DNA of 64,000 bases from Candidatus Levyibacteriota bacterium. GTDB taxonomy: Bacteria; Patescibacteriota; Microgenomatia; Levybacterales; UBA12049. Below the pieces are notes generated by a model. The model made no database searches, was not told where the DNA came from, and saw only the letters and a program-made list of their open reading frames with translations. The stretch covers positions 97,702 to 161,701 of the forward strand of contig CAWBPM010000002.1 of assembly GCA_963790825.1 (NCBI GenBank). Reading direction: 5' to 3'. Of the stretch, positions 17,118 to 54,279 are shown piece by piece (position 1 is the stretch's first letter; each line of letters begins with the position of its first letter). A program made the translations under genes and the position numbers.

Positions 17118-17188
17118 GCGGGATTAGTACACCGGTAGTATGCTACCTTCCCAAGGTAGAGAAGCGAGTTCGATTCTCGTATCCCGCT
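17118..17188 (+). tRNA. tRNA-Gly (anticodon CCC)
   Basis: Acceptor GCGGGAT/ATCCCGC, anticodon stem CTACC/GGTAG with loop TTCCCAA, T-arm GCGAGTTCGATTCTCGT, discriminator U. Confidence 0.8.
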
Positions 17189-17199
17189 CAAGTATATTG

Positions 17200-17833
17200 T
17201 TAATGAAGTTTATGGAAATAATTGAGCGTGAAGCTGTTTCCATCTTTGGTCACTTTAATATTATAAAAAGAAGTATGTTTAGGCGGTTTGAGGGCGATTT
17301 GGGTAATCATTTTATAATCTGAGGGAATGACTTGCTTATTTGGTAAATTGCTTAAATCAAACCACCTAAGTTCGCCTTCTGAAGAATTAGTAATTTTCAT
17401 TGGTTTTTGAAGTATAACTTCAAATAAAAATAAAACGCAATGCCAATATGGTTGTTTTTCTCTTTTTCCCGGAAAATCTCGTTTAATACTGCCAGTATTC
17501 TCTTTGGTTTAATTTTCAACCCAGTTTCTTCAAATATTTCTCTTTTAACCGCGTCCTCAATCCTCTCGCCGAAATCAGTTTTCCGCCGGGCATGCCCCAA
17601 ATATTCTGAAATGGTTATTTGGTACGCTTCATGAGAAGAATTTTATTGCCACTCATGAGTGGAGAGATGACTATGATCAAAGGATGTTGTGTCATTTGAC
17701 AAATTATAGCAAATTTTAATACTGTGTATTGACGGTTTTTGTATAATTTGTTAGTATTAATCGTGCCCCGTACAAATATTAAAAACAGAAAAACAAAATT
17801 TATATTTATCTCCGGCGGAGTAATTTCAGGCAT
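17200..17833 (-). pseudogene. Nudix hydrolase gene split into three reading frames (pseudogene or indel errors)
   Basis: Three consecutive minus-strand ORFs (17615-17833, 17397-17600, 17200-17400). The middle one carries the Nudix box GERIEDAVKREIFEETG. The pieces abut in different frames. Confidence 0.55.
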
Positions 17834-19382: not shown

Positions 19383-19519
19383 TCATCCATTCTTTCTGGG
19401 TACCCAGGGTCATCCGGAATATAAAAGCCGACCGCTTAGACCCCACCCAATTTTTATTGCTTTTGTGAAAGCATGTAGTAAGTCTTGAATAATCTGGGAA
19501 ATTCCGCTATAATAACCTT

Positions 19520-36734: not shown

Positions 36735-39000
36735 TTATTTCTTATTTACCAACTTTCTCTCAAACTCTGCAATATTTTCTCTGACACTGTCGATGACATC
36801 AGGAGCAATAGAAACGCTGGTTATGCCATATTCTACTAATTTTTCCAGAAGATCCGGATACAAAGAAGGCGCCTGTCCGCAAATAGACGCTGTGATATGG
36901 TGCTTATGAGCAGTTTTGATAACATGTTCAAGCGCCCACAAAACCGCTTCACTCCGTTCATCAAATTCCGCTGCCACCTCGCTATTGTCCCGATCAGTTC
37001 CCAAAATCAACATGGTTAAATCATTTGATCCGATCGAAATACCGTCAATACCAACTTTTATAAATTCGTCAAGTAAAATAACATTCGAAGGAATTTCTAC
37101 CATCATGAAAAGCTTGAATGTCGGAGTTCTGTAAAGACCCGAAGCATTAATAATTTTCTTGACTTCAATCAGCTCATGAACGTTCCTGACAAACGGAATC
37201 ATGAGCCAAAGATTTTTCAACATCTTTTTGTTTCTGATTATTTTAATAGCTTCAAGTTCCATCTCGAAGACCTCGGGATCATGAATATACCGGTAAGCCC
37301 CGCGGTAACCCAGCATAGGATTTGGCTCGATAGGCTCAAATTCTTTCCCGCCGTCCAAGCCCCGATACTCATTCGTTTTTAAATCCGACGCCCGATAAAT
37401 AACCGGACGGGGATTAAAGGCTGAGCAAAAAGTCTCAAGCCCCAGAGCTAATTTATCAATAAAAACTTTTTTCTTCCCGTCCCGGATGAGTTTTTTCGGA
37501 TGAGTGCCGATATCTGCTATCATAAACTCCGCACGCAGTAACCCAACACCGTCGACATTTCGTCTGGCTACTTTTTCCGCGAGATCCGGTTGGGCAAGAT
37601 TAACATAAACTTTTGTCGCAGTTTTTATATATGCATGTCTTGCTTCAGGAATAGAACTCATCGCGCTTGGTTTGAAGCTCCCTTTGTATATTTCTCCCTT
37701 TGCTCCGTTTACCGTGATGACCTCTCCTGTTTTTAATATTTTTGTTGCCGTTTCGGTACCGACGACTGCCGGAATCCCCAGTTCCCGGGAAACAATCGCA
37801 GCATGTGAAGTTCTGCCGCCTTTTTCAGTCACGATAGCTACAGCTTTTTTCATCGCCGGAACATAATCGGGATTTGTTTGCTCTGCAACCAGTACATCTC
37901 CCGGGAGAACTTTATTAATTTCAGACACCGAATGAATTACTTTCCGCGGGGCCGCTGGCAATTCCCGGAGAAGCAGGGGCACCGGTAAGAAGAAGCGGTA
38001 GATTAATAACTTCCTCTTTTACCTTTTTCGTATGAGTAGTTGTAATTGCCCGGGTTTGGACAATATATACTTTATTTTTCTCAATCGCCCATTCGATGTC
38101 CTGGGGAAAATAATAATGATGCTCAAGTTTTTTTGCAAGAAGTGCGAGTTCTAAAATCTGATTGTCGGAAATTTTCTGTTTTTTCTTTTCATGATCCGTT
38201 AACCTAATCTCTTTATTTTTTGTCCCAACCTTTTTCAACATAATATCTTGCGGAGAGATAATTTTTTTCAAAATCTTAAGATCATCTTTTTTAACTTCAT
38301 AGTGATCGGGCGTAACCGTTCCCTGAACAATATTTTCTCCGAGACCCAAAATTGCTTCGATGGTAATGACAGACTTATCATTAGTTACCGGATCAAGGGA
38401 AAACATAACACCGGATTTTTCTGACTCAACCATTTTTTGAACAACGATTGCGATACCGACTCTGAAATGATCAAAATGTTGTTCATGCCGGTAAAATATG
38501 GCACGCGGTTCAAAAAGTGATGCCCAAGCTTCTTTGACTGCGAAGAGTAGATTTGTTTCACCTTTTATATTAAGATACGTTTCCTGCTGTCCTGCGAAAG
38601 ACGCAGTTGGCAAATCCTCAGCAGTAGCGCTTGAACGCACCGCAACAAGTGCGTCTTTAAAAATACCACCCAACATTTTATACGATTTAAAAATGTCATT
38701 GATTAATTGTTCCGACATACTCGCTTCCATAATCAGTTTTTTAATAAGTGAGGAAACTTGAGCAAGTGATTCGGGTCTGTCAAAACCGGTGGTTCCCAGT
38801 AGATGTTTAATTTTTGTGGTCAGGTTATTTTCGTGAAGAAACTGGAAATAAGATTGGGAGGAAACAATAAACCCATTCGGAACGGGAAATTTGGCTCTGG
38901 TCATCTCGCCCAAATTAGCACCTTTTCCGCCAACAACGGGAATGTCATTTTTATCTACTTCGGAAAACCAAAGAACTGATTTACTTTTTACGGGCATCAC
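36735..39000 (-). pseudogene. ppsA: phosphoenolpyruvate synthase (pyruvate, water dikinase) split by one frameshift
   Basis: N-terminal 359-aa ORF is the PPDK_N ATP-grasp (PEP/pyruvate-binding) part. C-terminal 415-aa ORF has the phospho-His mobile domain GGRTSHAAIVSRELGIPAVVG and the PEP-utilising TIM barrel. The junction near 37925-37980 falls in a G/C-run (AGCGGCCCCGCGG). A 1-nt indel rejoins GIASGPA to RKVIHSV. Confidence 0.6.
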
Positions 39001-39112: not shown

Positions 39113-39514
39113 GTGAACGATATGGATACAACTGCATATAAGGGTTTATTTTTAGAAACTGCCGAAGAATATGTACAAAAACTTGTGACAAATAGTAAGC
39201 TACTTTCTGCCAACTTTACTGATAGGGAAGCGATCTCGGCATTATATATTGCTGCACATTCGATAAAAAGTCAAAGTCTGATGATGGGATATACCGCAAC
39301 TGGTATTCTCAGCGGCACGCTTGAACAAATATTTAAAGAAGCGAAAGAAAGAAAAATACAGATCACCCTTTCGCAAATGAATCTTCTTTTTATCTGCATT
39401 CAAAGTCTAAAAGAATCGATTGAGAATATTAAGGCCAAAGACAAAGAAAAAGATGTGTCGGAAAATTACAAAAAACTTGAAGAGGTATTTCATATACAAT
39501 TAATAGGAAAATAA
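39113..39514 (+). CDS. Hpt (histidine phosphotransfer) domain protein
   Basis: AAHSIKSQSLMMGYTATGILSGTLEQIFKEA matches the Hpt HxxKG(S/A) helix motif. 133 aa. Directly upstream of a receiver gene and pilB. Confidence 0.5.
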   Translation: MNDMDTTAYKGLFLETAEEYVQKLVTNSKLLSANFTDREAISALYIAAHSIKSQSLMMGYTATGILSGTLEQIFKEAKERKIQITLSQMNLLFICIQSLKESIENIKAKDKEKDVSENYKKLEEVFHIQLIGK

Positions 39515-39515
39515 T

Positions 39516-39884
39516 ATGCGAATTTTACTAGTAGAAGACGATACTTTTTTCCAGAAATTCTACACAATGAAACTTACTGAAGCTGGTTTTCAGGTAGAAT
39601 TGGCTGAAAACGGAGCGGTAGGACTCGAAAAAGTTGGAGTTTCTCCGTATCCGGATTTAATTGTTTTGGACCTTGTTATGCCGGTAAAAGATGGATTTGA
39701 GTTTTTACGCGATTTTAAAAGTATAAAAATTCAGAAAAACATTCCAATTCTTGTATTCTCGACTTTGGGGCAAGAACAAGATATTACTAAAGCGAAAGAA
39801 ATGGGCGCAACGGACTATGTTAGCAAGAGTTTTTTTGATTTTGACAAATTACTTAAAAAGATTAATGATTTAATTAACAAATAA
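39516..39884 (+). CDS. response regulator receiver-only protein (CheY/PilH-like)
   Basis: MRILLVEDD...DLIVLDLVMPVKDGFEFL...VFSTLG...K shows the receiver Asp pocket and phospho-Asp context. 122 aa, no output domain. Confidence 0.75.
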   Translation: MRILLVEDDTFFQKFYTMKLTEAGFQVELAENGAVGLEKVGVSPYPDLIVLDLVMPVKDGFEFLRDFKSIKIQKNIPILVFSTLGQEQDITKAKEMGATDYVSKSFFDFDKLLKKINDLINK

Positions 39885-39901
39885 TACGAAATTACCTGCC
39901 T

Positions 39902-41584
39902 ATGCTAATTACGAGTGAAGAGCTGAAAAAATTAGTTTTGAACACCAAGTTACTGGAAGAAAAAGAGTATCTGGTAATTGAAGAGTTTGCGAAAAATTCA
40001 AATGTCGATCCGGCTGAAGCTTTAGTTCAAAAAGACGTTATTTCTGATGAAAATTTAGGAATAATGATCGCGGACTTTTTAAAAGTACCTTTTGTAACTC
40101 TGTCTAAGCTTTCCATCCCTGAAGATGTTATTCGTATCGTCCCCGAAAGAATTGCCAGAAAGCACAAAGTAATTCCCTTCGCCAAGGATGAGTCGGGAAT
40201 AAAACTCGCGATGGTTGATCCGTCCAATAAAGAACTTGTAGATCTAATCTCAATGAAAACCGGAGATAAAGTTATCCCGCATCTGGCGACAGAGCGTGAT
40301 ATTTATAACACACTTAGAGTTTATCGAAAAGATTTACAAAAGACATTTCAGGATCTACTTACGGAAGAATTGAGAAAATCGGGAAGCATCGTTAATGAAG
40401 CACCGGTTGAGAAGATTGTTGACATGATCATAGACTATGCATATCAGGATAAAGCTTCGGATATTCATATCGAACCTGAAGAAAAAGATTCATTGGTTCG
40501 CTTTCGCATTGATGGCATACTTCACGATGTTCTGATTATACCCAAAGCACTTCATGAACAAGTAACAACCCGTATAAAAGTATTGTCCCGTCTTAGAACG
40601 GATGAACATATGGCTCCGCAAGACGGCAAACTTAGGATTAAATTAGAAGAGGAAGAGCTTGATATTCGTGTGTCAATTCTACCGATTTCGGGCGGAGAAA
40701 AGACAGTCATGCGACTTCTCGCTTCACGCTTCGGGCAATTTTCACTTCTGGATTTAGGTATGAATGAGAAAGATTTGAAAAAAGTAACGAACGCGTTCAG
40801 CAAATCATACGGCATGGTACTTTCAACAGGCCCGACAGGTTCGGGAAAAACGAGCAGTATTTACGCAATCTTAAAAATTCTTAATACCCGGGAAAAAAAT
40901 ATTACAACAATTGAAGATCCGGTTGAGTACAGGATCAAGGGTGTTAATCAGATCCAGGTAAATTCGAAAACTAATTTAACTTTTGCTAACGGTTTAAGAT
41001 CAATTTTAAGACAGGATCCGAACATTGTTTTCGTGGGAGAAATACGTGATAACGAAACTGCGGGAATTGCCGTAAATGCTGCTTTAACCGGACATTTAGT
41101 ATTATCAACACTGCATACCAATGATGCTGCTACTGCTCTGCCCCGTTTGACAGACATGCAGGTAGAGCCGTTTCTGGTTGCTTCAACTGTTAATGTTATT
41201 ATTGGTCAAAGACTGGTTAGAAAAATCTGCGAAATGTGCAAAGCAACAACAATGGCAAGTCGCTCGGAACTGGTAAAAAATCTATCCGAAGAAGTAGTAT
41301 CGAAGCATTTTGACCAGAAAGAAGAACTACGCGTCTTTAGGGGTCAGGGATGTAAAGTTTGCCACACTACAGGATATGCCGGACGTATCGGAGTATTTGA
41401 AGTTTTAGAGGTGAGTAAAACCATCAGAGCGCTTATTGCGAAAAAAGCTGATGCGGACATGATCGTGCAGAAAGCGATGGAAGAAGGGATGACCACTATG
41501 CTTGATGACGGACTTGAAAAAGTTGCCCGGGGAATAACGACTATTGAGGAAGTATTCAGAGTAACGAAAGTAGAAAACGCATGA
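39902..41584 (+). CDS. pilB: type IV pilus assembly ATPase PilB (GspE family)
   Basis: N-terminal GSPII_E_N/MshEN-like domain, Walker A GPTGSGKTSS, Asp box, His box and a Cys-x2-Cys...Cys-x2-Cys-type zinc motif (CEMCKA...CKVCHTTG). 560 aa. Confidence 0.85.
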   Translation: MLITSEELKKLVLNTKLLEEKEYLVIEEFAKNSNVDPAEALVQKDVISDENLGIMIADFLKVPFVTLSKLSIPEDVIRIVPERIARKHKVIPFAKDESGIKLAMVDPSNKELVDLISMKTGDKVIPHLATERDIYNTLRVYRKDLQKTFQDLLTEELRKSGSIVNEAPVEKIVDMIIDYAYQDKASDIHIEPEEKDSLVRFRIDGILHDVLIIPKALHEQVTTRIKVLSRLRTDEHMAPQDGKLRIKLEEEELDIRVSILPISGGEKTVMRLLASRFGQFSLLDLGMNEKDLKKVTNAFSKSYGMVLSTGPTGSGKTSSIYAILKILNTREKNITTIEDPVEYRIKGVNQIQVNSKTNLTFANGLRSILRQDPNIVFVGEIRDNETAGIAVNAALTGHLVLSTLHTNDAATALPRLTDMQVEPFLVASTVNVIIGQRLVRKICEMCKATTMASRSELVKNLSEEVVSKHFDQKEELRVFRGQGCKVCHTTGYAGRIGVFEVLEVSKTIRALIAKKADADMIVQKAMEEGMTTMLDDGLEKVARGITTIEEVFRVTKVENA

Positions 41585-42630
41585 AAACAGAACGAGTCAG
41601 CCTTTCCGGCAATGATAAAATCGGTTTTATCAGTAGTCTTACTACTATGCTTGGGGCGGGCATTCCAATTCTTGAAACAGTAGATTCGCTCCTTGAAGAC
41701 GCGAAAGGCGGACAGAAAAAGCTACTCGAAACCATGCGGGCAGATTTAACGCAGGGACAACATATCTATTTTACGTTTGCAAAGTTTCCCTTAATTTTCG
41801 ATAAAGTAACCATCAATATTATTCGTGCGGCAGAAGAGGCGGGGACATTGGATGTTACGCTCACGGATGTAAAAAACAATATTCAAAAGGAAATGGAATT
41901 TACCGATAGAATTCGCTCGGCGCTTATTTATCCTATGTTTATCGCCTTTATATTTGTTGCGGTACTTTTAATGATATTAATTGTTGTCGTCCCAAAAATT
42001 AGCACAGTATTTGTACAATTGAAAGTGAAGTTGCCATTACCGACAAAAATTCTCATATTTTTGTCAAATATGTTATTGAACTATACCATACCGGTAATTA
42101 TCGGCTTTATTGTTTTTACTATCCTGGCGATTTACATTTATAAAAGAGAAAAAGGATTCATCATTCAAACGCTAACATCTCTGCCGGTTATTTCAAATTT
42201 GATGAAAGAAATTGATTGGAACCGTTTTACCAGAAGCATGTTTTTACTTCTCAGCGCCGGTATTCCGATTACCAGTGCCTTGGAAATGACACAAGACGTG
42301 GTAACCAGAAAAGAAATAAAAAAAGCAATTAAGCACGCAAGCGATGTAGTATTTACGGGAAAAAAATTGTCGGAAGGCTTAAAAGATGAAAAGAATGTAA
42401 TTTCACCGATTGTCATCAGAATTATTGAAGCGGGAGAGAAAACCGGATCTTTGGATAAGGCTATGCAGGATGCCGCAGATTTTCTTGAATATCAGATATC
42501 CGGAAACTTAAAAGCAGCTACCGCGTTAATTGAACCGATGATGCTGGTTATTGTCGGGGTGCTTATCGGGGGAATGATGATCGCAATCATCGGTCCAATT
42601 TACAGTATGATAGGGCAAATAAGTCCATAA
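41581..42630 (+). CDS. pilC: type IV pilus inner-membrane platform protein PilC (GspF family)
   Basis: Two T2SS-F-like repeats with TM helices. 4-nt overlap with pilB. 349 aa. Confidence 0.75.
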   Translation: MKTERVSLSGNDKIGFISSLTTMLGAGIPILETVDSLLEDAKGGQKKLLETMRADLTQGQHIYFTFAKFPLIFDKVTINIIRAAEEAGTLDVTLTDVKNNIQKEMEFTDRIRSALIYPMFIAFIFVAVLLMILIVVVPKISTVFVQLKVKLPLPTKILIFLSNMLLNYTIPVIIGFIVFTILAIYIYKREKGFIIQTLTSLPVISNLMKEIDWNRFTRSMFLLLSAGIPITSALEMTQDVVTRKEIKKAIKHASDVVFTGKKLSEGLKDEKNVISPIVIRIIEAGEKTGSLDKAMQDAADFLEYQISGNLKAATALIEPMMLVIVGVLIGGMMIAIIGPIYSMIGQISP

Positions 42631-42634
42631 TCCT

Positions 42635-43150
42635 ATGCAGATACATCATTCGTTTTCCTCTTCCAAACAAGCCGGATTTCCCCCGGTTCAATCGGGGTTT
42701 ACTCTGGCGGAATTAATATTAGTTATGTTGATTTTTACTACTCTTGTCGGAATTGCGACCATTAACTTGGCGCATATCCAACGCCGATCATCTATGACCA
42801 GCAGCATAAACATGCTGGCAACCGACATGAAAGAACAGCAAGTAAAAGCAATGGTTGGGGATACCGAAAGCAGAGCAAGTCCCGATAATTACGGTATTTA
42901 TTTCGGTACAAGTTCTTATACGCTTTTTCATGGCACCTACTCTGCAACTGATAGCGCAAATACCGTTATTCCAATCGATGCTACATTGCATTTTGCGACT
43001 CCCGGAGCCAGTATTATTTTTACCAGAGAGAGTGGTGACGTGTTGAATTATAGTATAAATGCTAACCTGATCATAATTCAGGATATAACGAATGGAGAAG
43101 TGACTAAGCTTAAGTTTAATAAATTCGGTGCGATAATAGGAACATATTAA
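42635..43150 (+). CDS. prepilin-type N-terminal cleavage/methylation domain protein (minor pilin/pseudopilin)
   Basis: Class III signal QSGFTLAELILVMLIF (G|FTLxE). Confidence 0.65.
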   Translation: MQIHHSFSSSKQAGFPPVQSGFTLAELILVMLIFTTLVGIATINLAHIQRRSSMTSSINMLATDMKEQQVKAMVGDTESRASPDNYGIYFGTSSYTLFHGTYSATDSANTVIPIDATLHFATPGASIIFTRESGDVLNYSINANLIIIQDITNGEVTKLKFNKFGAIIGTY

Positions 43151-43153
43151 ATT

Positions 43154-43672
43154 ATGAAAAATTTTCTTTTCATTTCGAGTCATGATTATTTGAAAGGCTT
43201 TACTATTGTTGAATTCCTTATTTATATGGGAATACTTGTTATTTTACTTACTGCTTTAACTAGTGTTTTTACCTCAATTCTCGATGTATCTTCAGAGTCT
43301 CAGGCAAGTTCCGCAGTAGAGAGAAACGGAAAGTATATTCTGGCAAAACTGGCGTATGATATTCATCAGGCGACCGGTTCCGGTGTTTTGTCCCCGGTTT
43401 TGGGAAGTTCTTCAGGTAGCCTTAAACTTTCTCTCGGAGGTATAACAAGCACTTACAGCACGAATAATAGCGGCAATTTACAAGTAACATCAAATCTGGG
43501 CACGGATTTTCTAAGCAGCTATGATGCCAGTGTTTCCGGCTTAACATTTACCACATTGGGTAATAGCGGAGGAAAAAATTCAGTACAAATTAGCTTTACT
43601 TTGACTAGTTTGATGCAGCGAATATCCGGTAACGAAACAGCAAATTTTTCAACAACGGTTGGAACCAGATAA
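43154..43672 (+). CDS. prepilin-type N-terminal cleavage/methylation domain protein (minor pilin/pseudopilin)
   Basis: KGFTIVEFLIYMGILVILL class III signal. Ser/Thr-rich body. Confidence 0.6.
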   Translation: MKNFLFISSHDYLKGFTIVEFLIYMGILVILLTALTSVFTSILDVSSESQASSAVERNGKYILAKLAYDIHQATGSGVLSPVLGSSSGSLKLSLGGITSTYSTNNSGNLQVTSNLGTDFLSSYDASVSGLTFTTLGNSGGKNSVQISFTLTSLMQRISGNETANFSTTVGTR

Positions 43673-43679
43673 TTAATAT

Positions 43680-44078
43680 ATGCAAGAAAAAAATTTAATT
43701 AACAGTAATCAAAAGGAAGGGGGACAAGCGCTCATTACCTTGCTTTTTTTTGTAATCATTGCCATAACTATAACTTCGGCATCAGTTGTGGTATTAATCG
43801 CAAACAGCACCTCCGCGACGAAATACGAGGAAGGAATCAGGGCATTTTATGTAGCGGAAGGTGGAGCGGAAAACGCGGTTCTTCGATTACTGAGAGATCC
43901 TACTTATACAGGTGAAACATTGACAATTTCCGATGGAACTGCAACGATATCTGTAAGCGGGTCCGGTCCTTTTACAATTACGTCAAAAGGCGTTGTTGGA
44001 AATTTTACAAGAACAGTTCAAGTAAGCGCTGCCTACGTGAATAATATATTAAGCATTACTTCCTGGAAGGAAATTTAA
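43680..44078 (+). CDS. pilus-associated protein with N-terminal hydrophobic helix (PilX/pseudopilin-like, non-canonical leader)
   Basis: GGQALITLLFFVIIAITITSASVVVLIA hydrophobic segment without the G|FTLxE consensus. Located inside the minor-pilin run. Confidence 0.35.
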   Translation: MQEKNLINSNQKEGGQALITLLFFVIIAITITSASVVVLIANSTSATKYEEGIRAFYVAEGGAENAVLRLLRDPTYTGETLTISDGTATISVSGSGPFTITSKGVVGNFTRTVQVSAAYVNNILSITSWKEI

Positions 44079-44080
44079 CA

Positions 44081-45196
44081 ATGAGTAAGGGAATTATCTA
44101 TTTACAAAAAGAACAATTTGATTTATATCTCAACGATCAACAAAAAATCTTTACCTGCCAATTTACAAAAGATCTGGTAAATTACATGGAAGTAATTAAT
44201 AAAGAAGCGTTTGAAAATCTTATTACCTCATTTATCACGACGAATAAACTGCAACCGGCAAATCTCATTATTGTTTTAGCAAATTCTATAGTTTTTACAA
44301 AAGAAATCACAAATCCTCAACCAACTCCAAACGATGCAAAATCTGCTCCTGATAAATTAAAGTTAATTGCAGAAGAAAAGGCCACGAAAGATAGAGAGGG
44401 ATTATTGATCCAACAATTTATTGACAACATACCCTTTGCCGAAGTAAGTCATAAAATTATTTCTCTCCCGACCGGAAAAAAAGTAATTGCCGCCAATACG
44501 GATTTATATGACAGAATTAAAAATGTTTTTGCAAAATCAGGATTTATTATAGAAGCAGTAGCACCTATCGCAGTTTTAGATGCCAGCATCAGTGCACAAC
44601 CAAATTTTTCCCTGCAAATGGGGCAGCTTATGCTTGGGAAATATGACATATTGAGACAAAATAGTTTGGTGGTTAATTATCAGAATGAATTAATAAAATC
44701 CGGTAACAAAAATAAACATGCAGTGGGAAAAAGTACGAATAAACGAGCCTTTATTCTTTCCGGAGTTTTGGGGTTACTACTTCTTGTTCTGGGAGTCATG
44801 GTATATATGACCTATTTTGCTTCACAAACAACGTCTAAAAAACCTTTACCCGGTGCTTTAACTCCGGCTTCCGCCAGTCCCACCGGCCTACCGGTTGCAT
44901 CGGGATCGGCACAAGTTATTCCAGATAACTCGGGTGTTACTATTATTGCAACAGAAGGGGAGGATAGTCTTTCTACCACGCTTAGAGAAAATCTCACTTC
45001 TTTAGGGTTTACCAATGTTAGCTCAGTCAGCTCAGGACTTACCAGTATTCCTCGGACAACAATTTCTTTTACATCAAGTACATCTGCCGATGTAAAAGTT
45101 AAAATAGTAAATGCTGTACAAGCATTATCACCCGAAGCCGTGGTCGCTCCGGATATTAACAGTAGCGGTATTACTATTAATTTATCTAATAAATAG
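44081..45196 (+). CDS. pilus assembly protein, PilM-N-terminal-like cytoplasmic domain fused to PilN-like TM/periplasmic part (tentative)
   Basis: About 210 cytoplasmic residues starting GIIYLQKEQFDLYL (PilM-like start), one TM helix (AFILSGVLGLLLLVLGVMVYM), then a Ser/Thr/Pro-rich periplasmic tail. Sits between the pseudopilins and the major pilin. Confidence 0.3.
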   Translation: MSKGIIYLQKEQFDLYLNDQQKIFTCQFTKDLVNYMEVINKEAFENLITSFITTNKLQPANLIIVLANSIVFTKEITNPQPTPNDAKSAPDKLKLIAEEKATKDREGLLIQQFIDNIPFAEVSHKIISLPTGKKVIAANTDLYDRIKNVFAKSGFIIEAVAPIAVLDASISAQPNFSLQMGQLMLGKYDILRQNSLVVNYQNELIKSGNKNKHAVGKSTNKRAFILSGVLGLLLLVLGVMVYMTYFASQTTSKKPLPGALTPASASPTGLPVASGSAQVIPDNSGVTIIATEGEDSLSTTLRENLTSLGFTNVSSVSSGLTSIPRTTISFTSSTSADVKVKIVNAVQALSPEAVVAPDINSSGITINLSNK

Positions 45197-45199
45197 CTT

Positions 45200-45766
45200 C
45201 CTTTATTTTCCCTCTTGACAATTAGGAAAAGGATATGATTTACTAAATGCAGAGATATGAAAACAACTGCCCCGATAAATAAACTAGCTAAAGGTTTTAC
45301 CCTCATCGAGCTCTTAGTTGTTATCGGCATTTTAGCAATTCTTTTGGCAATCACCTTAATCGCAATTAATCCGGCCAGACAATTCTCCCAGGCAAATAAT
45401 ACAAAAAGAAGCAGCGATGTGAATGCTATTCTTAATGCCGTCAATCAGTATATGGCAGATAATAAAGGTGCTCTTCCCACAGGTATTAGTACGACAGCCC
45501 AGACGATTAACGGAGTAGATTTTGGAGCCATGTGCACTGCATTGGTTCCTACATATATAGCCGCACTTCCGGTAGATCCATTATCTAATGCAAATGCGGT
45601 ACAGTCTACAGATTGCACGAGTACTACATGGAATACAGGATACGTAGTACAGCAGTTAACAGGTGGCAGCAATAGGCTTACGGTATCCGCACCGGGAGCA
45701 GAGCTGGGGGCCACTATCTCCGTAACCAGATAAAGAGTTTCTCCTTATTAATTTAATTATTATTAA
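45200..45766 (+). repeat. 567-bp perfect direct repeat, copy 1 (pilin promoter + pilin gene + 33 nt 3' flank)
   Basis: Identical base-for-base to 48076-48642 by direct comparison of the printed sequence. The flanks diverge immediately outside both ends. Confidence 0.85.
45257..45733 (+). CDS. pilA: type IV major pilin (prepilin with 13-aa leader, G|FTLIELLVV)
   Basis: MKTTAPINKLAKG|FTLIELLVVIGILAILLAITLIAINP class III signal. 158 aa, with two Cys near the C-terminus (disulfide loop). A TTGACA hexamer lies 35 nt upstream. Confidence 0.8.
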   Translation: MKTTAPINKLAKGFTLIELLVVIGILAILLAITLIAINPARQFSQANNTKRSSDVNAILNAVNQYMADNKGALPTGISTTAQTINGVDFGAMCTALVPTYIAALPVDPLSNANAVQSTDCTSTTWNTGYVVQQLTGGSNRLTVSAPGAELGATISVTR

Positions 45767-46144: not shown

Positions 46145-46381
46145 CTATTTCTTTTTGGATTTTCCTTTACTTGATGATTGATTTACAAGATAGAGGAGAC
46201 CGACCAGGAAACCTCCACCGATAATTGCAAAGATAACATACTTTTGCAGCATTGCAGGATCATTATATAAATAGTTTATGCTAAAGACAATCTTAACAAA
46301 AAGCACGAAAACCAATGCCAAGATAAGAAATGCTATAACTGCTTTTGCGTTACTGTTATGATTTCCTTTTTCAAGCTTCAT
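46145..46381 (-). CDS. small membrane protein (two TM helices, Lys-rich C-terminus)
   Basis: 78-aa ORF inside the segment bracketed by the 567-bp direct repeats. Confidence 0.35.
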   Translation of the reverse strand: MKLEKGNHNSNAKAVIAFLILALVFVLFVKIVFSINYLYNDPAMLQKYVIFAIIGGGFLVGLLYLVNQSSSKGKSKKK

Positions 46382-46465
46382 AATTTATTATTGATACATA
46401 CTCAACCAATTGTCAAGAGGCAATTTATTAAAGAATATAGTTTTTCCTTAGATATTAAGTAAGTC

Positions 46466-47926
46466 TCATTTTGTAAAAATTGTATAGTTACCAATATTTT
46501 TACTTTGGCTATAATGATTTTTGATAAATTGTACAATAGGACTAAGATCCTGACTATTTGTTTTTCCTAAGATAATCATTGGTACTTTTTTCTTTGTTAA
46601 ACTATTGATTATATTCTTCTGATAATTCGTTTCTACCTCGATCGGAGAAATTAAATCAGACCGTGTAGCATTTATTCTATCAGCTAAAAAATAAACTAAC
46701 GGAACATATTGATATATATAAATAAAATCGTTGGGTTTTGTTTTTGTCTGAATATACTTAGTTATCTGCATTGTTCTTTCAATTTCCTGATTAGAAAGAA
46801 AAACGTGAAGCCTGGGGTCTTGAGCGAAAGTTGTATCATACTGCATGGGAGGATTCCACCTATAATATCCGTAAAAATAAGCAGAATACAATCCAAGCCC
46901 TGTAATAAATATGAGAATAAGAAGAAAAAACTTCTTATTAAGTTCACTTTTATTATTACTGATGATAATTGCCAGGGGGAGGCAAGATATTGCAAGTAAA
47001 GGAACAAAGTGATCATAGTCGGTAGTCGGGCGTATACCAAGTAAATAAAATGTAGCAGTAAAAAGTGGTACGATTAAAAGATTTTTATTCGATTTTAAGC
47101 AAATAAAAAATGAGATAACAGAAAGTGTAAGGGGGGAAGTATAAAGAATGAATTTAAGTATTTTTATAATAAATGATCCTTGGTAAATAAATTGCGTGTC
47201 CAGAGTTTTACCGAAAAGTATCCGCTCGAAAGTATAGATATACATGTCTTTAATAAACGGCATAAATGAAGAAGTAAAAAGTAGTATTCCTGTGATTACT
47301 ATTCCGGAAGTTAAAAGACCGAACAAAAAGTAAAAAACATAGATCTTTTTTTTAAAAAAAAGAAAAGGCAAGAATGAAACGAGAAACAGACCGATACCAA
47401 AATTTTGTTTAGAAAGAAAAATCAGAATGACCATAATGCCGGACATAAAAAAGTACACCCCCTTCTGCCTAATGATTCCCAGCAAATAAAAAAATATTGT
47501 GTAGAGATAAAAGCATACTGCAAACATTGTCGGCCAGGGAAAATTGATATGAGCCGGTCCCCAGGCTATAAAAAATAAAAGCGACAACAAAACAAGAGGA
47601 ACCTTCTTGGTTATAAGTCTTACTATTTTATAGAGGGCAAAAAGTGACAACAGTGAAATAGCCAAACTGGCCAAACGTCCTGAGAATACACTCTCTCCGA
47701 ACGTATGAAGAAATACAGAGGTAATGAGAAATGATAGCGGAGTATATGTAACATCAAAATCCCGATATGGAACTTGTCCATGCACGACCCTTAGTGCAGA
47801 GTTTAAGATATACCCCTCATCCGAATATATTATTCCTTTAAATTGGAAAAAAATAAGAATATTAAGAAGTACCAATATAAAAAAAAGAAACAGTAAATTG
47901 TTTAGAGAAAATAATTTATCTCTCAT
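46466..47926 (-). CDS. GT-C fold glycosyltransferase, ArnT/PMT (GT39/GT83)-like polytopic membrane protein
   Basis: IIYSDEGYILNSALRVVHGQVPYRDFDVTYTPLSFL resembles the DE...Y...A...G.W..P motif of ArnT/PMT-family enzymes in the first periplasmic loop. More than 10 TM helices and a soluble C-terminal domain. Located between duplicated pilin genes. Confidence 0.5.
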   Translation of the reverse strand: MRDKLFSLNNLLFLFFILVLLNILIFFQFKGIIYSDEGYILNSALRVVHGQVPYRDFDVTYTPLSFLITSVFLHTFGESVFSGRLASLAISLLSLFALYKIVRLITKKVPLVLLSLLFFIAWGPAHINFPWPTMFAVCFYLYTIFFYLLGIIRQKGVYFFMSGIMVILIFLSKQNFGIGLFLVSFLPFLFFKKKIYVFYFLFGLLTSGIVITGILLFTSSFMPFIKDMYIYTFERILFGKTLDTQFIYQGSFIIKILKFILYTSPLTLSVISFFICLKSNKNLLIVPLFTATFYLLGIRPTTDYDHFVPLLAISCLPLAIIISNNKSELNKKFFLLILIFITGLGLYSAYFYGYYRWNPPMQYDTTFAQDPRLHVFLSNQEIERTMQITKYIQTKTKPNDFIYIYQYVPLVYFLADRINATRSDLISPIEVETNYQKNIINSLTKKKVPMIILGKTNSQDLSPIVQFIKNHYSQSKNIGNYTIFTK

Positions 47927-48075: not shown

Positions 48076-48642
48076 CCTTTATTTTCCCTCTTGACAATTA
48101 GGAAAAGGATATGATTTACTAAATGCAGAGATATGAAAACAACTGCCCCGATAAATAAACTAGCTAAAGGTTTTACCCTCATCGAGCTCTTAGTTGTTAT
48201 CGGCATTTTAGCAATTCTTTTGGCAATCACCTTAATCGCAATTAATCCGGCCAGACAATTCTCCCAGGCAAATAATACAAAAAGAAGCAGCGATGTGAAT
48301 GCTATTCTTAATGCCGTCAATCAGTATATGGCAGATAATAAAGGTGCTCTTCCCACAGGTATTAGTACGACAGCCCAGACGATTAACGGAGTAGATTTTG
48401 GAGCCATGTGCACTGCATTGGTTCCTACATATATAGCCGCACTTCCGGTAGATCCATTATCTAATGCAAATGCGGTACAGTCTACAGATTGCACGAGTAC
48501 TACATGGAATACAGGATACGTAGTACAGCAGTTAACAGGTGGCAGCAATAGGCTTACGGTATCCGCACCGGGAGCAGAGCTGGGGGCCACTATCTCCGTA
48601 ACCAGATAAAGAGTTTCTCCTTATTAATTTAATTATTATTAA
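48076..48642 (+). repeat. 567-bp perfect direct repeat, copy 2
   Basis: Identical to 45200-45766 (offset 2876 bp). Confidence 0.85.
48133..48609 (+). CDS. pilA: type IV major pilin, exact duplicate of 45257-45733
   Basis: Encoded protein identical over all 158 aa. Lies inside repeat copy 2. Confidence 0.8.
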   Translation: MKTTAPINKLAKGFTLIELLVVIGILAILLAITLIAINPARQFSQANNTKRSSDVNAILNAVNQYMADNKGALPTGISTTAQTINGVDFGAMCTALVPTYIAALPVDPLSNANAVQSTDCTSTTWNTGYVVQQLTGGSNRLTVSAPGAELGATISVTR

Positions 48643-48767
48643 TCCATTATTTATTTGTATTTTGTTTAATTTTATTTCTTATGAAGATAGCCTTTTTAAG
48701 TATACAACTTTCAAAATATTCCCTATTGACAAATAATTGAAAAAACTGATTAAATTAGTGCATAGAT

Positions 48768-49244
48768 ATGAAAACAACTGCCCCGATAAATAAACTAGCT
48801 AAAGGTTTTACCCTCATCGAGCTCTTAGTTGTTATCGGTATTTTGGCAGTATTACTGGCAATTACTTTAGTTGCCATCAATCCGGCCAGACAATTTTCCC
48901 AGGCAAATAATACAAAACGAAGCAGTGACGTAAACTCCATTCTGGATGCAATTAATCAGTACATGGCAGATAATAAAGGTGCTCTTCCCACAGGTATTAG
49001 TACAACTGCCGCAACAATTAATGGGACGGGCTTTACAGCTCTCTGTAGCGCTTTAGTACCTACTTATATAGCCGCTCTTCCGACTGATCCATTATCGAAT
49101 AATTCTGCCGTACAGTCCAGTAGCTGTACAAGTACAACATGGAATACAGGATACGTAGTACAGCAGTTAGTAGGAGGAGGTAATAGGGTAACTGTTTCTG
49201 CTCCTATGGCTGAGCTTAGTGCAACTGTTTCAGTAACGAGATAG
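48768..49244 (+). CDS. pilA: type IV major pilin, divergent third paralogue
   Basis: Same leader and N-terminal helix (MKTTAPINKLAKGFTLIELLVVIGILA). About 30 substitutions concentrated in the central/C-terminal variable region. Own TTGACA-N17-ATTAAAT promoter-like sequence upstream. Confidence 0.8.
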   Translation: MKTTAPINKLAKGFTLIELLVVIGILAVLLAITLVAINPARQFSQANNTKRSSDVNSILDAINQYMADNKGALPTGISTTAATINGTGFTALCSALVPTYIAALPTDPLSNNSAVQSSSCTSTTWNTGYVVQQLVGGGNRVTVSAPMAELSATVSVTR

Positions 49245-49268: not shown

Positions 49269-50297
49269 ATGTCTTTGCCTAAAATATCTGTAAATATTCC
49301 ATTTCGTGTAACAGGTAATGCAAATATTGCCCTCAAATCTCTCCTCTACGTTGATTATCCAAAACAACTTTTTGAAATAATTCTTATAGAAGGAAATCAG
49401 CCGGCAGCTCAGCGCAACGCGGGTATTCGTCTATCAAAAGGTGATATTATTTATTTTTTAGATAACGATTCAAGAGTTAGAAAAAACTCGCTGCGTCTAA
49501 TAGCAAATGAGTTCTCATACTCTTCTGCAGCAGCTCTTGGAGGCCCTAGTCTTACATACAATCAAGGCAAGAATGATCTCAGTCAATTAATTGGTTTTGC
49601 TTTAGAAACCTTTTTTGGTTCACTTCGCATGCGTTATCGTTACAGCAAAAAAACAACGGGTGAAGCATCAGAATATGAACTAATCGGAGCGAATCTCGCA
49701 ATGCGCAAAGCTGTTTTGAATAAGGTTGGCGGATTTGATGAAAGGTTTTATCCAAATGAAGAGACTGAGCTACTCAGAAGACTTAAAGATAAAGGGTATA
49801 TTTTGCAATACAAAAGAGAACTATTTATCCATCGGAAGCACAGAAAAGATCTGAGTGAGCTGACGAAGCAATTTTATCAATATGGAAGCGGGCGCATGAA
49901 GCAAATTAGGATAAACCCAAAGATAGAAGATATATTATTTATACTACCGGTTTTGTTCGAGGGCTATCTCATTACTCTTATTTTTTATCACACGCTTTTT
50001 TACGTATCTCCACTTCTTTTCTATTTGCTGCTTGCAATTACTACTTCAGTAAAAGCTGCTATTAAATACAAACGGCCTGATTTATTTTTTTCTTTGCCTC
50101 CACTTTTCTTACTTATCCACCTTTCTTACGCTACCGGTGAAATTACAGAGTATTTAAAACCCTTGTTTAATAAGCAACTGAAACTTCCTAAGCGTACCAT
50201 TAAACATAAGATTAAAGCGATTAAAATAAAAACGTATACAGAGGAGCTTTCCAGTGTTGAGAAACTTATTTCTTTTCAGCCAAAACGAGGTAATTAA
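49269..50297 (+). CDS. glycosyltransferase family 2 protein with C-terminal TM helices
   Basis: GT-A fold motifs (IILIEGNQP...DNDS...) in the first ~230 aa, then a membrane-embedded C-terminus. Confidence 0.6.
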   Translation: MSLPKISVNIPFRVTGNANIALKSLLYVDYPKQLFEIILIEGNQPAAQRNAGIRLSKGDIIYFLDNDSRVRKNSLRLIANEFSYSSAAALGGPSLTYNQGKNDLSQLIGFALETFFGSLRMRYRYSKKTTGEASEYELIGANLAMRKAVLNKVGGFDERFYPNEETELLRRLKDKGYILQYKRELFIHRKHRKDLSELTKQFYQYGSGRMKQIRINPKIEDILFILPVLFEGYLITLIFYHTLFYVSPLLFYLLLAITTSVKAAIKYKRPDLFFSLPPLFLLIHLSYATGEITEYLKPLFNKQLKLPKRTIKHKIKAIKIKTYTEELSSVEKLISFQPKRGN

Positions 50298-51048
50298 AGC
50301 ATATTGTATGAGATGGAAATATTTTATCGAGCAAGATGCAGAGATAAGAAAATGCAAGAAGAATAGGATAAAAAAGCAGTGCGAACAAGTAGAAAATTTT
50401 GTTTTTGTTTGCTATCTCAATAAGATAATCCATTAGTAATACAATAATTGTAGAAAAAATAGAACCTTCCTTTACTACTTTTAGTACCGTACATTGATTC
50501 CTATCAAATAATTTACGCAAGCCATATTCAGTAAAACGGAAATAATCTCTTGGGATCTCATGAAGACTCCAGGTTAGTGGGGCGCTGATAAGAATCTTCC
50601 CTCCTTTTTTTACCACCCTAACCATTTCACGAACACATAACTCAGGATTGGAATGATGTTCAAGGACTTGAAAAGAAACAACAGTATCAAAATTATTATC
50701 TTTAAATGGCAAGAGCAAAGATTTTTTATAATTGTTATCAAAAAATAGATCTGGTTTTTCACCAAGGATTCCTTTCGACCTTGAATAGTCGGGAAAATCA
50801 ATACCAACATAACTACTAACAGCAGAAAAAACTCCCTGATAGGGTTTTTCTCCACAACCAACGTCCAGTAATTTTCCATAAAATTTGTATCTGTGCGCTA
50901 GTAGTTTAATATCGCGTAGTAAGTAATATTTAGCTAAAAAATGAGGGGCTATGAGAAAATAAAGCGGTTGCAAACTCTTCCCAAAAGATTTTACAAATCC
51001 GGAGGCCTCAATAATACGCTTATTTTTTATATTTTTTTTCATTATCAA
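50266..51048 (-). CDS. class I SAM-dependent methyltransferase
   Basis: Motif I LLDVGCGEKPYQ. 260 aa with a C-terminal hydrophobic segment. Convergent 32-nt overlap with the GT2 gene. Confidence 0.6.
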   Translation of the reverse strand: MIMKKNIKNKRIIEASGFVKSFGKSLQPLYFLIAPHFLAKYYLLRDIKLLAHRYKFYGKLLDVGCGEKPYQGVFSAVSSYVGIDFPDYSRSKGILGEKPDLFFDNNYKKSLLLPFKDNNFDTVVSFQVLEHHSNPELCVREMVRVVKKGGKILISAPLTWSLHEIPRDYFRFTEYGLRKLFDRNQCTVLKVVKEGSIFSTIIVLLMDYLIEIANKNKIFYLFALLFYPILLAFSYLCILLDKIFPSHTICFNYLVLAEKK

Positions 51049-51056
51049 AATTAATT

Positions 51057-52229
51057 TTAATCATACATTAATAATTGGTACATTGCAGAATATAATTTTT
51101 CTCTATTGAATCTATTTTGTATAAAAGATTGTATCGCATGACGATTAAAAGGAGTACCATTTATACAATAAATAATCTTATTAATAAATTGTTCCTTATT
51201 CTTAACTAAATAGCCATTTTTATTGTTAACTATTATATCATTACACCCCTGAATATTATAGGAAATGACTGGTAATCCTAAACTTTGCGCTTCGAGTAAA
51301 ACATAAGGAAAACTTTCCCATTTACTGGTACAAAGCAGCAAATCATTGTCTTGGTATACATTCGCCGTAGCTTTATTTTCTATATATCCTAAATAATGAA
51401 CATTTGACCATTTTTTACTCAGTTTTATGATATCTTTTCTCAACTCTCCGTCGCCCGCAATATTCCATACAATCTTATTTTGATAACCTGAACTATTCAT
51501 GCTATCTATAATTTCAATCAAGTCGAACACTCCTTTTTGTTCAGTCAGCCTTCCGATCCAAAGCAAAGCAAAGGTACCTTTTTTGCTGGTAATTTTAGTT
51601 TTACTAATCGTAGCCTTATGAGAGAAATAGGAAAAGTCAAATGGGTGATATATTTTTTGTATTTCTTGTTTAGGTATTAATTTCGTTAATCTTTCCTCAT
51701 CAAATGTATTCATAACATGCAGTCTTAATGCTCCGGATAAAGCAAATTTATAAATCAGCGAGGAGTAAAGCAGATTATGCAGTTTTGACTGTAACGATTT
51801 TGTAATCGGATAAAAGGATGGAATATGGAGTCCATAAATAACAGGAGGAAGATTTTTGTAACCAATAACATATTTCAAAAGAATGACTTCTAGAAGATTA
51901 TTCGAACTGTAGATTACATCAAATTTACCCAGTTTCTTTTGCATATCTTTTAATCCTGAAACAGTAACATAGCGGACATCTCCCAATTGTTTTTTAATAT
52001 GTCCGCTTTTTTCTTTATATATTTTTCTATCTTGCAAACCTAAAAAATAAATATTATAGAAAAAAAGAGTTTTTTGCAGCATTTTTTCATCAAATGTCAA
52101 AATAGTAATATCCAAATCAGGATATCTTTCTTTTATACCGGTGGCAGTATCGATAAAATATTTTGCTAGCCCGCCGCCATATTCAAGCAGTAAGTAGTTA
52201 AAAAAAACAATCTTCATATTTCTAGTCAA
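51057..52229 (-). CDS. glycosyltransferase family 1/4 (GT-B) protein
   Basis: C-terminal E-X7-E-like region FPYVLLEAQSLGLPVISYNIQGCNDII typical of GT4 retaining transferases. Confidence 0.65.
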   Translation of the reverse strand: MTRNMKIVFFNYLLLEYGGGLAKYFIDTATGIKERYPDLDITILTFDEKMLQKTLFFYNIYFLGLQDRKIYKEKSGHIKKQLGDVRYVTVSGLKDMQKKLGKFDVIYSSNNLLEVILLKYVIGYKNLPPVIYGLHIPSFYPITKSLQSKLHNLLYSSLIYKFALSGALRLHVMNTFDEERLTKLIPKQEIQKIYHPFDFSYFSHKATISKTKITSKKGTFALLWIGRLTEQKGVFDLIEIIDSMNSSGYQNKIVWNIAGDGELRKDIIKLSKKWSNVHYLGYIENKATANVYQDNDLLLCTSKWESFPYVLLEAQSLGLPVISYNIQGCNDIIVNNKNGYLVKNKEQFINKIIYCINGTPFNRHAIQSFIQNRFNREKLYSAMYQLLMYD

Positions 52230-54279
52230 TTAATTTATTTCTAATTGCGGATTTTACATATGTATTCTCTGTAATATCCTCATTAAATTTAGCTTTGTAA
52301 TTTTGCTTGAATTTCTGAATCGTTAACGGAGTAACGTGACATTCTTTATCTAAAATATAGAGCTGGCCATAATATGTTCTCCAAATAGAGTAATTGATTA
52401 TTGCCTTTTTCATATTAGAAAGGGAATTAATACAGTCCTTGCTTCCTTTAAACTGGCTAATTGCCAGACCCGAATATGCGCTTGGATTTTGTTCATCGAT
52501 CCGGATAGCTCTTTGGTAATAGTTTTCTGCAGTTTTCGGATCGTGATAAAAAGACATGAGAAAATCTCCGGCCCGGACCAGAGTATTGGAGTAAAATGAA
52601 GGAATTTCGGGGGTAATGAGACCATCTTCGTCTAATTGTAATTCGTCGAGTCTGACAGGGTGCATGATTTTCCAATTATCCTCGAACGCTTGTATGTAAT
52701 CGGCTTTTTTGTAAACTGTTTTATTACTAATTATCTCACCCACCAAACCTCTTGGTAATAAATAAAATCCTCTCGGAACAAATGAGACATCAAAAGTGGC
52801 GTATAATTTTCTATTCTTGCTTATTTCCTGAAGTGTGTTATTTAAGACATTTTTTAGTTTAACTGCGGGATGAGATTTATGATATTTATTAATTTCCAGG
52901 TCAAGATACACATTCCCGCCGACTCCCAGAGGATTAATAATGTCTACATCCGGTCTGAACTTAACGACGAAATGCTCATACCAGATATTAAAAGTAGTTG
53001 TATCTCCAGATACAAGAAGAACAGAATTTTCAGGAAGTTCACTTAAAATATCTTTCGCATACGTATTACCGATCTGAGTGTGAGACATATCGGTTTTCTG
53101 AAAATTATAATAGATTAAATCAAACGGAATGAGCAGGAAATAGGCCAGAATTAGAGTGGTGTATATCTTTTTTGAAAGCTTTGAGTCCAATAATTCCTTA
53201 AGATAAAGAAAACCAAAAGGAACAAGAAGCATAAAAATAACATAAGGAAGAACATAAAAGCGTTCACTAATTCCCCAGGAAGTCGTAGTAGTAATAACAG
53301 GTGCAGAGTAATATACAAAGAACGGGCCGGATAAAAGAAAAGACAGAAGAATACTGATCAGAAGCAGTTTATTTTTTTTGTAGAGCTTTATAATTCCTAA
53401 GAGCGCAACAGCACAGATTTGATATGAAAAGGTAGCAATCAGAGTCTTGAAAAAATCTCCCACAACAATTAGTTTCACCCGTGTCGGGATCTGATCCACG
53501 AGGCCGGGTGCAGTTCCGTAATCTTTTCTTAAGATAAGATCCAGAAAATTTTTTAGGCTCGATGGATTATCCCAATTAACAATCGGGTTGGATAATGCGC
53601 TAAACGGTACGTAGATATAAGGTGATAGTCCCAAGAAAAAGAATAAAAAAGCAATAAAAATGTGTCTTCTTTGTGAAAAAATAACCGACGATCTTAAAAA
53701 AAGTAAAAAAAGAATTCCGGGAAAAATAAGAATAATAGTCTGGTGATGTGTCAGAGATAATCCGCAAAAAAATGAAAGCAAATAAAAATAGCGAATCTGT
53801 TTATCTTGGTAAAATACATAGGTAAAATAAAAAATAATAATTACAAAAAGATTGTTCAGACCAAATACTTCGGGAATTTCTGCATGCAGCCAGAAATAAT
53901 AAGAAAATGCTAAAATCGCAGTCGAAAGAAGAGAGAGAAAGAAATTTTTTGTAATTCTGTAAGATAATTTATAAAAGAAAATAAGGCCGATAAAGGAAGC
54001 AATCGTTGAAACCAATGCAACTTTTGTGACCGGCGGGAGAGAAATTGGTAGATGAGAAAAGAGAAAACCCAACATAATAAAAAGCGGATATCCCGGGGGA
54101 TGGGCAATGCCATGAAAAAAAGATGCGGTTACCAAATCTCCAATATCGCCACTATAGATATCTGAAGTTATGTTATGAAGGTAAAGGCCAAGAATAAGCC
54201 CAAAAAAAACAAATAAGACAATCTTTCTAACCTGGTTAGTCACAGGTACTATTATAGCAACACCGGTACTCCTTGACAT
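52222..54279 (-). CDS. GT-C fold glycosyltransferase-like membrane protein (DUF2723/PMT_2-like) with C-terminal TPR region
   Basis: SGDIGDLVTASFFHGIAHPPGYPLFIMLGFLF contains the HPPGYP signature recalled for DUF2723. About 12 TM helices, then a soluble C-terminus with TPR-like repeats (YYQRAIRIDEQNPSAYSGLAISQF). Confidence 0.5.
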   Translation of the reverse strand: MSRSTGVAIIVPVTNQVRKIVLFVFFGLILGLYLHNITSDIYSGDIGDLVTASFFHGIAHPPGYPLFIMLGFLFSHLPISLPPVTKVALVSTIASFIGLIFFYKLSYRITKNFFLSLLSTAILAFSYYFWLHAEIPEVFGLNNLFVIIIFYFTYVFYQDKQIRYFYLLSFFCGLSLTHHQTIILIFPGILFLLFLRSSVIFSQRRHIFIAFLFFFLGLSPYIYVPFSALSNPIVNWDNPSSLKNFLDLILRKDYGTAPGLVDQIPTRVKLIVVGDFFKTLIATFSYQICAVALLGIIKLYKKNKLLLISILLSFLLSGPFFVYYSAPVITTTTSWGISERFYVLPYVIFMLLVPFGFLYLKELLDSKLSKKIYTTLILAYFLLIPFDLIYYNFQKTDMSHTQIGNTYAKDILSELPENSVLLVSGDTTTFNIWYEHFVVKFRPDVDIINPLGVGGNVYLDLEINKYHKSHPAVKLKNVLNNTLQEISKNRKLYATFDVSFVPRGFYLLPRGLVGEIISNKTVYKKADYIQAFEDNWKIMHPVRLDELQLDEDGLITPEIPSFYSNTLVRAGDFLMSFYHDPKTAENYYQRAIRIDEQNPSAYSGLAISQFKGSKDCINSLSNMKKAIINYSIWRTYYGQLYILDKECHVTPLTIQKFKQNYKAKFNEDITENTYVKSAIRNKLID

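Follow-up and report, generated by a model that had tools for sequence, protein, structure and literature searches.

A diverged third pilin gene, probably for a major subunit, in a CPR bacterium, held under purifying selection and apparently patched by gene conversion with two identical paralogues

Why should a pilus locus carry two identical pilin genes and, beside them, a third that differs? We examined this question for a locus in a 64,000-nucleotide stretch of DNA (the window; GC content 37.6%), in which the third gene, copy C, had been read in an initial annotation as a case of antigenic or functional diversification with separate regulation. The genes at and around the locus are listed below, in window coordinates.

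39113-45196, forward strand: pilus assembly operon (Hpt, response regulator, PilB, PilC, three minor-pilin-like genes, PilM-like gene)
39902-41584, within this operon: PilB ATPase (NCBIfam PilB, 3e-159)
41581-42630, within this operon: PilC platform (NCBIfam GspF/PilC, 3e-65)
45200-45766, forward strand: pilin copy A (CDS 45257-45733) in its repeat unit, immediately 3' of the PilM-like gene
46145-46381, reverse strand: two-helix membrane ORF of 78 aa, between A and B
46466-47926, reverse strand: PMT_2/GT-C-type glycosyltransferase of 486 aa (Pfam PMT_2, 4.4e-6)
48076-48642, forward strand: pilin copy B (CDS 48133-48609) in its repeat unit, which is 100% identical to the A unit
48711-48767, forward strand: sequence 5' of C, homologous to the corresponding stretches before A and B
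48768-49244, forward strand: pilin copy C, an intact ORF of 158 aa
49269-50297, forward strand: GT2 with C-terminal membrane helices, starting 24 nt after C
50266-51048, reverse strand: SAM methyltransferase, in the glycosylation-type cluster 3' of C
51057-52229, reverse strand: GT4, same cluster
52222-54279, reverse strand: TMEM260-like GT-C with TPR repeats, same cluster

The operon that precedes the pilin genes contains Pfam N_methyl matches and is predicted to encode both a PilB-type ATPase and a PilC-type platform next to copies A to C; no PilD-like prepilin peptidase gene was recognised among the ORFs of the 64-kb window. Copies A and B are the same at every nucleotide, and their identity extends 57 nt upstream and 33 nt downstream of the coding sequence, giving a 567-bp repeat that brackets a 2.3-kb opposite-strand segment. 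C had been placed next to the two identical copies, but only B adjoins it, across a spacer of 158 nt, while A lies 3 kb upstream, past two opposite-strand genes. No intrinsic terminator was recognised by a consensus scan, either in the spacer separating B from C or beyond C. The Rfam scan of the window gave no match near the pilin locus; its only matches were tRNA genes at 16039-16112 and 17118-17188 (forward strand).

Two genes elsewhere in the window are disrupted. The CTP synthase gene (pyrG, ~17700-19400, forward strand) has an in-frame stop after GGVISGIGKA, and its reading frame changes at least twice on the way from the synthetase part to the glutamine amidotransferase part; this may be either a pseudogene or an error-rich stretch. 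A frameshift near 37925-37980 divides a PEP synthase/PPDK-like gene (36735-39000, reverse strand) into two ORFs that overlap, 37921-39000 and 36735-37982; its syntenic counterpart in a relative (L082) is a single ORF of 758 aa.

The description of C as a third pilin paralogue with the same leader was borne out. The predicted product is a prepilin with a 13-residue leader, the residues G-1, F+1 and E+5, an alpha1 helix, a globular head and the invariant residues Cys93 and Cys120. The site expected for a prepilin peptidase, MKTTAPINKLAKG/FTLIELLVVIGILA, is present, with a short, positively charged leader ending in Gly and a hydrophobic helix behind it, and the leader MKTTAPINKLAKG followed by FTLIELL is common to A, B and C. 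Copy C matches Pfam N_methyl (PF07963; 5.4e-8, 32.5 bits, cut-off 21.2) and NCBIfam IV_pilin_GFxxxE (TIGR02532; 6e-7, 29 bits, cut-off 16.3); its match to the GspG-like model TIGR01710 (2e-10, 40.6 bits) lies below the curated cut-off of 88.85. An AF2 model built on 120 sequences has the lollipop fold (mean pLDDT 84.5), with helices at residues 16-35 and 39-68 and strands at 82-85, 126-133, 141-149 and 152-157. The solved folds nearest to this model are PulG and EpsG (1t92, 4lw9) and type IV pilins, with weak scores (Foldseek E ~0.2), and the profile matches in the PDB, to geopilin, GspG and PilE1, are confined to the N-terminal helix. Mature C has a GAST content of 41% (A/B, 39%), and a range of 38-47% has been quoted for major pilins (PMC11623550); the strong -35 box and the several gene copies would also fit a major subunit. 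There were 6259 homologous matches, the best 120 of which are 63-87% identical to C; some of the homologues are labelled Microgenomates or Roizmanbacteria. The two pilin domains, the lollipop model, the N-terminal matches in the PDB and the position at the end of an operon with PilB, PilC, minor-pilin and PilM-like genes identify copy C as a type IV pilin, and the labels of the homologues suggest that its host is an ultrasmall CPR (Microgenomates-like) bacterium. We also considered a major pseudopilin (GspG) of a type II secretion system and rejected it, since TIGR01710 scores far below its cut-off and neither a secretin nor GspL/M is encoded at the locus.

Copy C differs from A/B at 98 of 477 nucleotides and 22 of 158 residues, whereas the first count had been about 30 positions. 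The change of VNAILNAVN to VNSILDAIN was found as described, at residues 55-63. The replacements do cluster behind the N-terminal helix (2 in residues 1-55, 20 in residues 56-158; Fisher p = 0.007), as is usual for the way in which pilins are constrained. Over its first 14 residues the mature helix matches that of A/B exactly, and further along alpha1 there are only I/V exchanges and others like them (residues 28, 35, 57, 60 and 62). Beyond alpha1 the globular domain holds about 17 differences, which fall in the first strand and short helix of the alpha-beta region (82, 87, 88, 90, 92, 94), in the Cys93-Cys120 loop (106, 112, 113, 118, 119) and in the C-terminal beta-sheet and its turns (135, 138, 141, 147, 151, 154). 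The disulfide-loop region, which had been called rewritten, is indeed changed, but only at 6 of the 26 residues between C93 and C120, mostly by swaps of the T/S type.

Counting the amino acid differences between paralogues without the synonymous changes misleads toward diversification. By the Nei-Gojobori method the comparison of C with A/B gives 62.5 synonymous and 34.5 nonsynonymous differences (dN 0.104, dS 0.93) and a dN/dS of 0.11, a ratio that is approximate, as is the age of C, because dS is near saturation. Taken alone, the globular domain has a dN/dS of 0.135, and residues 82-122 have one of 0.09. A value above 1, as diversifying selection would require, was thus seen neither overall nor in any 15-codon window (maximum pN/pS 0.56), and diversifying selection on C is not supported, although a few positions under positive selection could go unnoticed in a pairwise ratio, which is a mean over sites and time. 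Seventeen of the 22 replacements have a BLOSUM62 score of at least 0. When C was aligned with 118 homologues taken from other genomes, the replacements proved to fall in columns that vary family-wide (mean entropy 1.34 vs 0.67 bits; Mann-Whitney p = 7e-5). Copy C is held under purifying selection, and the proposed antigenic or functional diversification finds no support in these data.

All family-invariant residues are kept in C with the exception of N60. This residue (48945-48947), located in alpha1, is Asn in A, B and the 118 homologues and Asp in C, the sole replacement at a fully conserved position. C also carries the rarer residue at 16 of the 22 differing positions, so that, from both observations, it is the more derived copy.

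The nucleotide differences are interrupted by three tracts in which C is identical to A/B.

48768-48838, forward strand: tract 1, CDS nt 1-71 (71 nt)
48963-49003, forward strand: tract 2, CDS nt 196-236 (41 nt)
49137-49169, forward strand: tract 3, CDS nt 370-402 (33 nt)

None of 100,000 codon shuffles gave an identical run as long as the longest one observed, 71 nt (p < 1e-5). Codons 1-23 agree at all 23 third positions, the codons elsewhere at 72 of 135 (Fisher p = 3e-6), and outside the first 23 codons pS is 0.62. The closest outside relative is a gene on a short metagenome contig from soil (L001), a putative orthologue of A, whose protein is 89% identical to A and 84% to C. Inside the tracts, every informative site has A and C alike and L001 different (11 sites in tract 1, 6 in tract 2, 5 in tract 3), a pattern of 22/0/0. 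Outside them, 17 sites group A with C, 52 group A with L001 and 29 group C with L001. The gene tree therefore switches from ((A,L001),C) outside the tracts to ((A,C),L001) inside. Such a switch is the classical signature of gene conversion, and together with the length of the identical run it points to conversion between C and A/B. The initial annotation had held that an even, synonymous-dominated spread of substitutions would mark a simple old duplication. Synonymous changes do dominate; the spread is uneven, but its unevenness is caused by the three tracts of complete identity and so speaks for homogenisation and not for diversification.

We considered, and rejected, the possibility that a constraint at the nucleotide level on the 5' end, such as translation initiation or mRNA structure, keeps tract 1 identical. 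The codons in question vary between genomes, and two internal tracts show the same pattern. In the first 12 mature codons, third positions are 17-58% identical in most between-genome pairs, and C against L001, at 67%, is the sole pair above this range. Since these positions vary freely between genomes, the 5' identity within this genome is not attributable to such a constraint.

We then compared the upstream regions. A TTGACA box stands at 45215 (A), 48091 (B) and 48726 (C), always 42 nt from the ATG in A, B, C and L001 and always in a CCCTM-TTGACA context. Upstream of C the sequence reads CCCTA-TTGACA (48726-48731), with a TG at 48747-48748, a weak -10 TTAAAT (48750-48755) and GCATAGAT before the ATG; read from ATTAAAT (48749-55), the spacer is 17 nt. 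The -10 is weak both in C (TTAAAT or ATTAAA) and in A/B (TTTACT), neither passed the consensus scan, and the spacer and -10 of C differ from those of A/B. Of 104 family genes in loci from metagenomes and genomes, 94 have an exact TTGACA on the coding strand no more than 140 nt upstream of the Gly-1 codon, mostly 57-100 nt away; in the window the hexamer occurs 19 times per 64 kb of strand, or about once in 3.3 kb. When 83 distinct upstream sequences were aligned, a CC-C before the box, a TG in the spacer and T...T.A at the putative -10 proved to be conserved. Thus, the element described as an independent promoter exists at 48726-48755, but it is a diverged copy of one that is present family-wide. 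Each pilin copy is probably its own transcription unit, as the gene appears to have been duplicated together with its promoter, and this is not evidence of distinct regulation.

Two observations on initiation signals accompany these results. Many family copies have the motif TAATACAGAGAT(A-rich)ATG between the presumed -10 and the ATG, without a Shine-Dalgarno-like GGAGG; in these genes, which are predicted to be highly expressed, leaders may be very short or initiation may depend on an unusual signal. The best sigma-70-like match of the region belongs to the 78-aa membrane ORF (TTGACA-18-AATAAT, 11/12, 46387-46416, reverse strand) and is preceded by a CCTM context, as in the pilin promoters.

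The arrangement recurs in relatives. The pilus operon is syntenic in L082, L083, L084 and L085, with one, three, one and two pilin genes, respectively, and the GT2, methyltransferase, GT4 and TMEM260-like cluster follows the pilins in L082, L083 and L085, the L084 contig ending within the downstream genes. L086 and L087 hold orphan pilin copies. Tandem pairs were present in 8 of 47 metagenome loci (flanks of at least 700 nt on both sides, retrieved by the family-specific DNA pattern NNTKRSSDVN). A scan of genome contigs with the peptide GFTLIELLV listed mostly unrelated pilins (Planctomycetes and others), with L002-L004 close. In all tandem pairs analysed, from metagenome and genome loci, pN/pS was 0.06-0.33, and several pairs contain identical runs of 39-393 nt within otherwise diverged sequence. 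Two copies in L083 differ by one residue at a dS of 0.39, two copies in L133 are 99% identical, and partners of 80-85% identity recur (L083_2, L084_2, L170). Often the nearest relative of a paralogue is its partner at the same locus. Multi-copy pilins under purifying selection with patchy homogenisation thus appear to be the norm in this lineage.

Taken together, these results lead us to favour, with a probability of about 0.62, the reading that C is an intact, probably expressed major-pilin paralogue, an old duplicate kept by purifying selection and patched by conversion with A/B. C would have arisen by a duplication within the lineage, which is likely to be old because synonymous sites are near saturation outside the converted tracts and L001 groups with A over most of the gene. 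Short conversion events, from or to A/B, would have patched it repeatedly, leaving the three-tract mosaic. The gene carries its own copy of the sigma-70-like promoter of the family (CCyC-TTGACA, a spacer of ~18 nt with TG, a weak -10) and is most likely transcribed as a unit of its own, with possible read-through into GT2. With its leader and first 14 mature residues identical to those of A/B and alpha1 nearly so, the product would share with that of A/B both its prepilin peptidase and the PilB/PilC machine that polymerises it, and it may enter the filament alongside A/B as a variant of the major subunit or serve as an alternative to it. The best reading is that C is a functional second major-pilin isoform, of which we infer the expression, the co-assembly and any functional difference. 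The identity of A and B argues that dosage also matters. On the other hand, the rare residues at 16 of 22 sites and D60 could reflect relaxed constraint or specialisation rather than simple co-assembly, and C could be silent or poorly expressed, given a weak -10 that fails the consensus scan.

Three other explanations have to be weighed against this one. Dosage may be all that matters: the three genes would serve only to make more of the most abundant structural protein, and neutral drift would account for the 22 differences. The identity of A with B and the same strong -35 box on every copy fit this, as do the near-identical pairs in L083 and L133, which show selection for the same protein in multiple copies. 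However, ongoing conversion has not erased the 22 residue differences of C, the conversion of its variable segments being either selected against or simply absent, and the recurrence of the 80-85% identical partners in several genomes likewise speaks against redundancy, which we regard as unlikely. Diversification, with positive selection on exposed loops, a distinct pilus and separate regulation, could draw on the concentration of replacements after residue 55, on the segments at 82-94 and 106-119, where they are densest and pN/pS is the highest in the gene (0.3-0.56), on the rare residues with the unique D60, and on a promoter whose spacer and -10 are unlike those of A/B. Against this stand the low overall ratio, never exceeding 0.56, the predominance of conservative changes, the drift of the same positions across the whole family, the homogenisation seen in the conversion tracts and the equally low ratios of the other paralogue pairs in relatives; we consider it quite improbable.

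The alternation of identical tracts with diverged segments shows that DNA is exchanged between the copies, and C might then be an unexpressed reservoir of sequence that recombines into an expressed gene, in the manner of Neisseria pilS. The pilS cassettes of Neisseria are without a promoter and a 5' coding end. C, in contrast, is full length, with a start codon, a leader and the conserved promoter box at the canonical distance, it is a single variant and not part of a cassette array, and purifying selection acts over its whole ORF. Antigenic variation of the pilE/pilS type was rejected on the same grounds, A, B and C all being full length with the conserved promoter box, and a silent donor role for C is highly improbable.

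The segment between A and B has a counterpart in L001. At ~80% nucleotide identity, positions 1-1567 of that contig hold the N-terminus of the GT-C gene (reverse strand), a pilin (forward), an 81-aa ORF that conserves the 78-aa ORF (reverse) and the C-terminus of the GT-C gene (reverse), an order that is a circular permutation of the unit running from A through the intervening segment to B. Such an order would result if the relative had a tandem array or an excised circle of the unit, or if the repeat had been collapsed. It suggests further that the repeats were already in place before the two organisms diverged and that conversion has kept A and B identical. Homologues of the 486-aa enzyme at 43-50% identity lie, by synteny, in polysaccharide clusters or elsewhere, none of them next to pilins. 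A dedicated role in pilin glycosylation was rejected as unsupported by synteny beyond this lineage and L001, and a TfpW-like role for the enzyme is speculative. Ser and Thr make up 19-23% of the pilin heads, and the nearby GT2, methyltransferase, GT4 and TMEM260-like cluster is a candidate pathway for protein (possibly pilin) O-glycosylation. A bolder proposal, which we consider a long shot, is that A, B and C, the 567-bp repeats, the GT-C cassette and the mosaic form a recombination-driven module for surface variation in an episymbiotic CPR bacterium. If this were true, A and B would recombine and thereby excise the glycosyltransferase cassette or multiply its copies, the L001 permutation being as expected of a circle or tandem array, and patchwise conversion between C and A/B would produce pilin mosaics, so that pilus surface and glycosylation would vary within the population.

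Several known systems bear comparison. PilE1 and PilE2 of Streptococcus sanguinis are encoded in tandem, share 78% identity and are both part of one heteropolymeric filament (PMC6497953, PMC10628169). As there, the paralogues described here are adjacent major pilins of ~80% identity (78% there, 86% here) with near-identical N-terminal helices, and PilE1 has a small, PulG-resembling globular head, as in the model of C; by this analogy C may co-assemble with A/B. Unlike in S. sanguinis, there are three genes, two of them identical, a glycosyltransferase gene is inserted, and the head has an invariant Cys pair, while PilE1 and PilE2 have no detectable sequence similarity to C beyond the N-terminal helix. 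Neisseria pilE/pilS shares with this locus a non-reciprocal exchange of short tracts between pilin paralogues of the same genome, which yields mosaic genes, but here the copies are full length with promoters, there is one variant rather than a library of cassettes, and selection is purifying.

The Saccharibacterium TM7x, with PilA1, PilA2 and orphan pilins, is likewise a CPR organism in which pilins are encoded at several loci and the major ones are small, with a lollipop fold. Its two major pilins correspond to two machineries and two filaments, whereas here there are one operon and a single PilB/PilC set in the window. TM7x pili serve in host attachment and motility (PMC11623550, PMC9894109). 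The type II secretion pseudopilins GspG, PulG and EpsG give the best family-model match beyond the N-terminal motif (TIGR01710) and the best matches among solved structures, but here the host is monoderm-like, the locus has no secretin and the neighbours are those of a pilus operon. At pilA-tfpW of Pseudomonas aeruginosa, a multi-pass GT-C glycosyltransferase gene adjoins the major pilin, as here, where a TPR-bearing GT-C also lies downstream; in contrast to tfpW, the homologues of the 486-aa enzyme are unlinked to pilins, and pilin glycosylation is hypothetical here. The Pam pili of a 2026 preprint on a novel pilus system in CPR were set aside as unrelated to C, their pilins being Ig-fold proteins that assemble by donor-strand exchange.

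Type IV pili are the best-supported organelles of host attachment and DNA uptake in CPR bacteria, and almost nothing is known of them outside Saccharibacteria. The pilin locus itself is ordinary. More informative are the family-wide promoter box, the recurrent conversion and the repeat-bracketed glycosyltransferase. Because nearly every copy has an exact TTGACA at a fixed distance, promoters of uncultured CPR bacteria can here be compared, which is seldom possible. This box, the unusual conservation of the major pilin of the Microgenomates type and its frequent presence in two or three copies, which evolve under purifying selection with patchy conversion, should be useful for both annotation and experiments.
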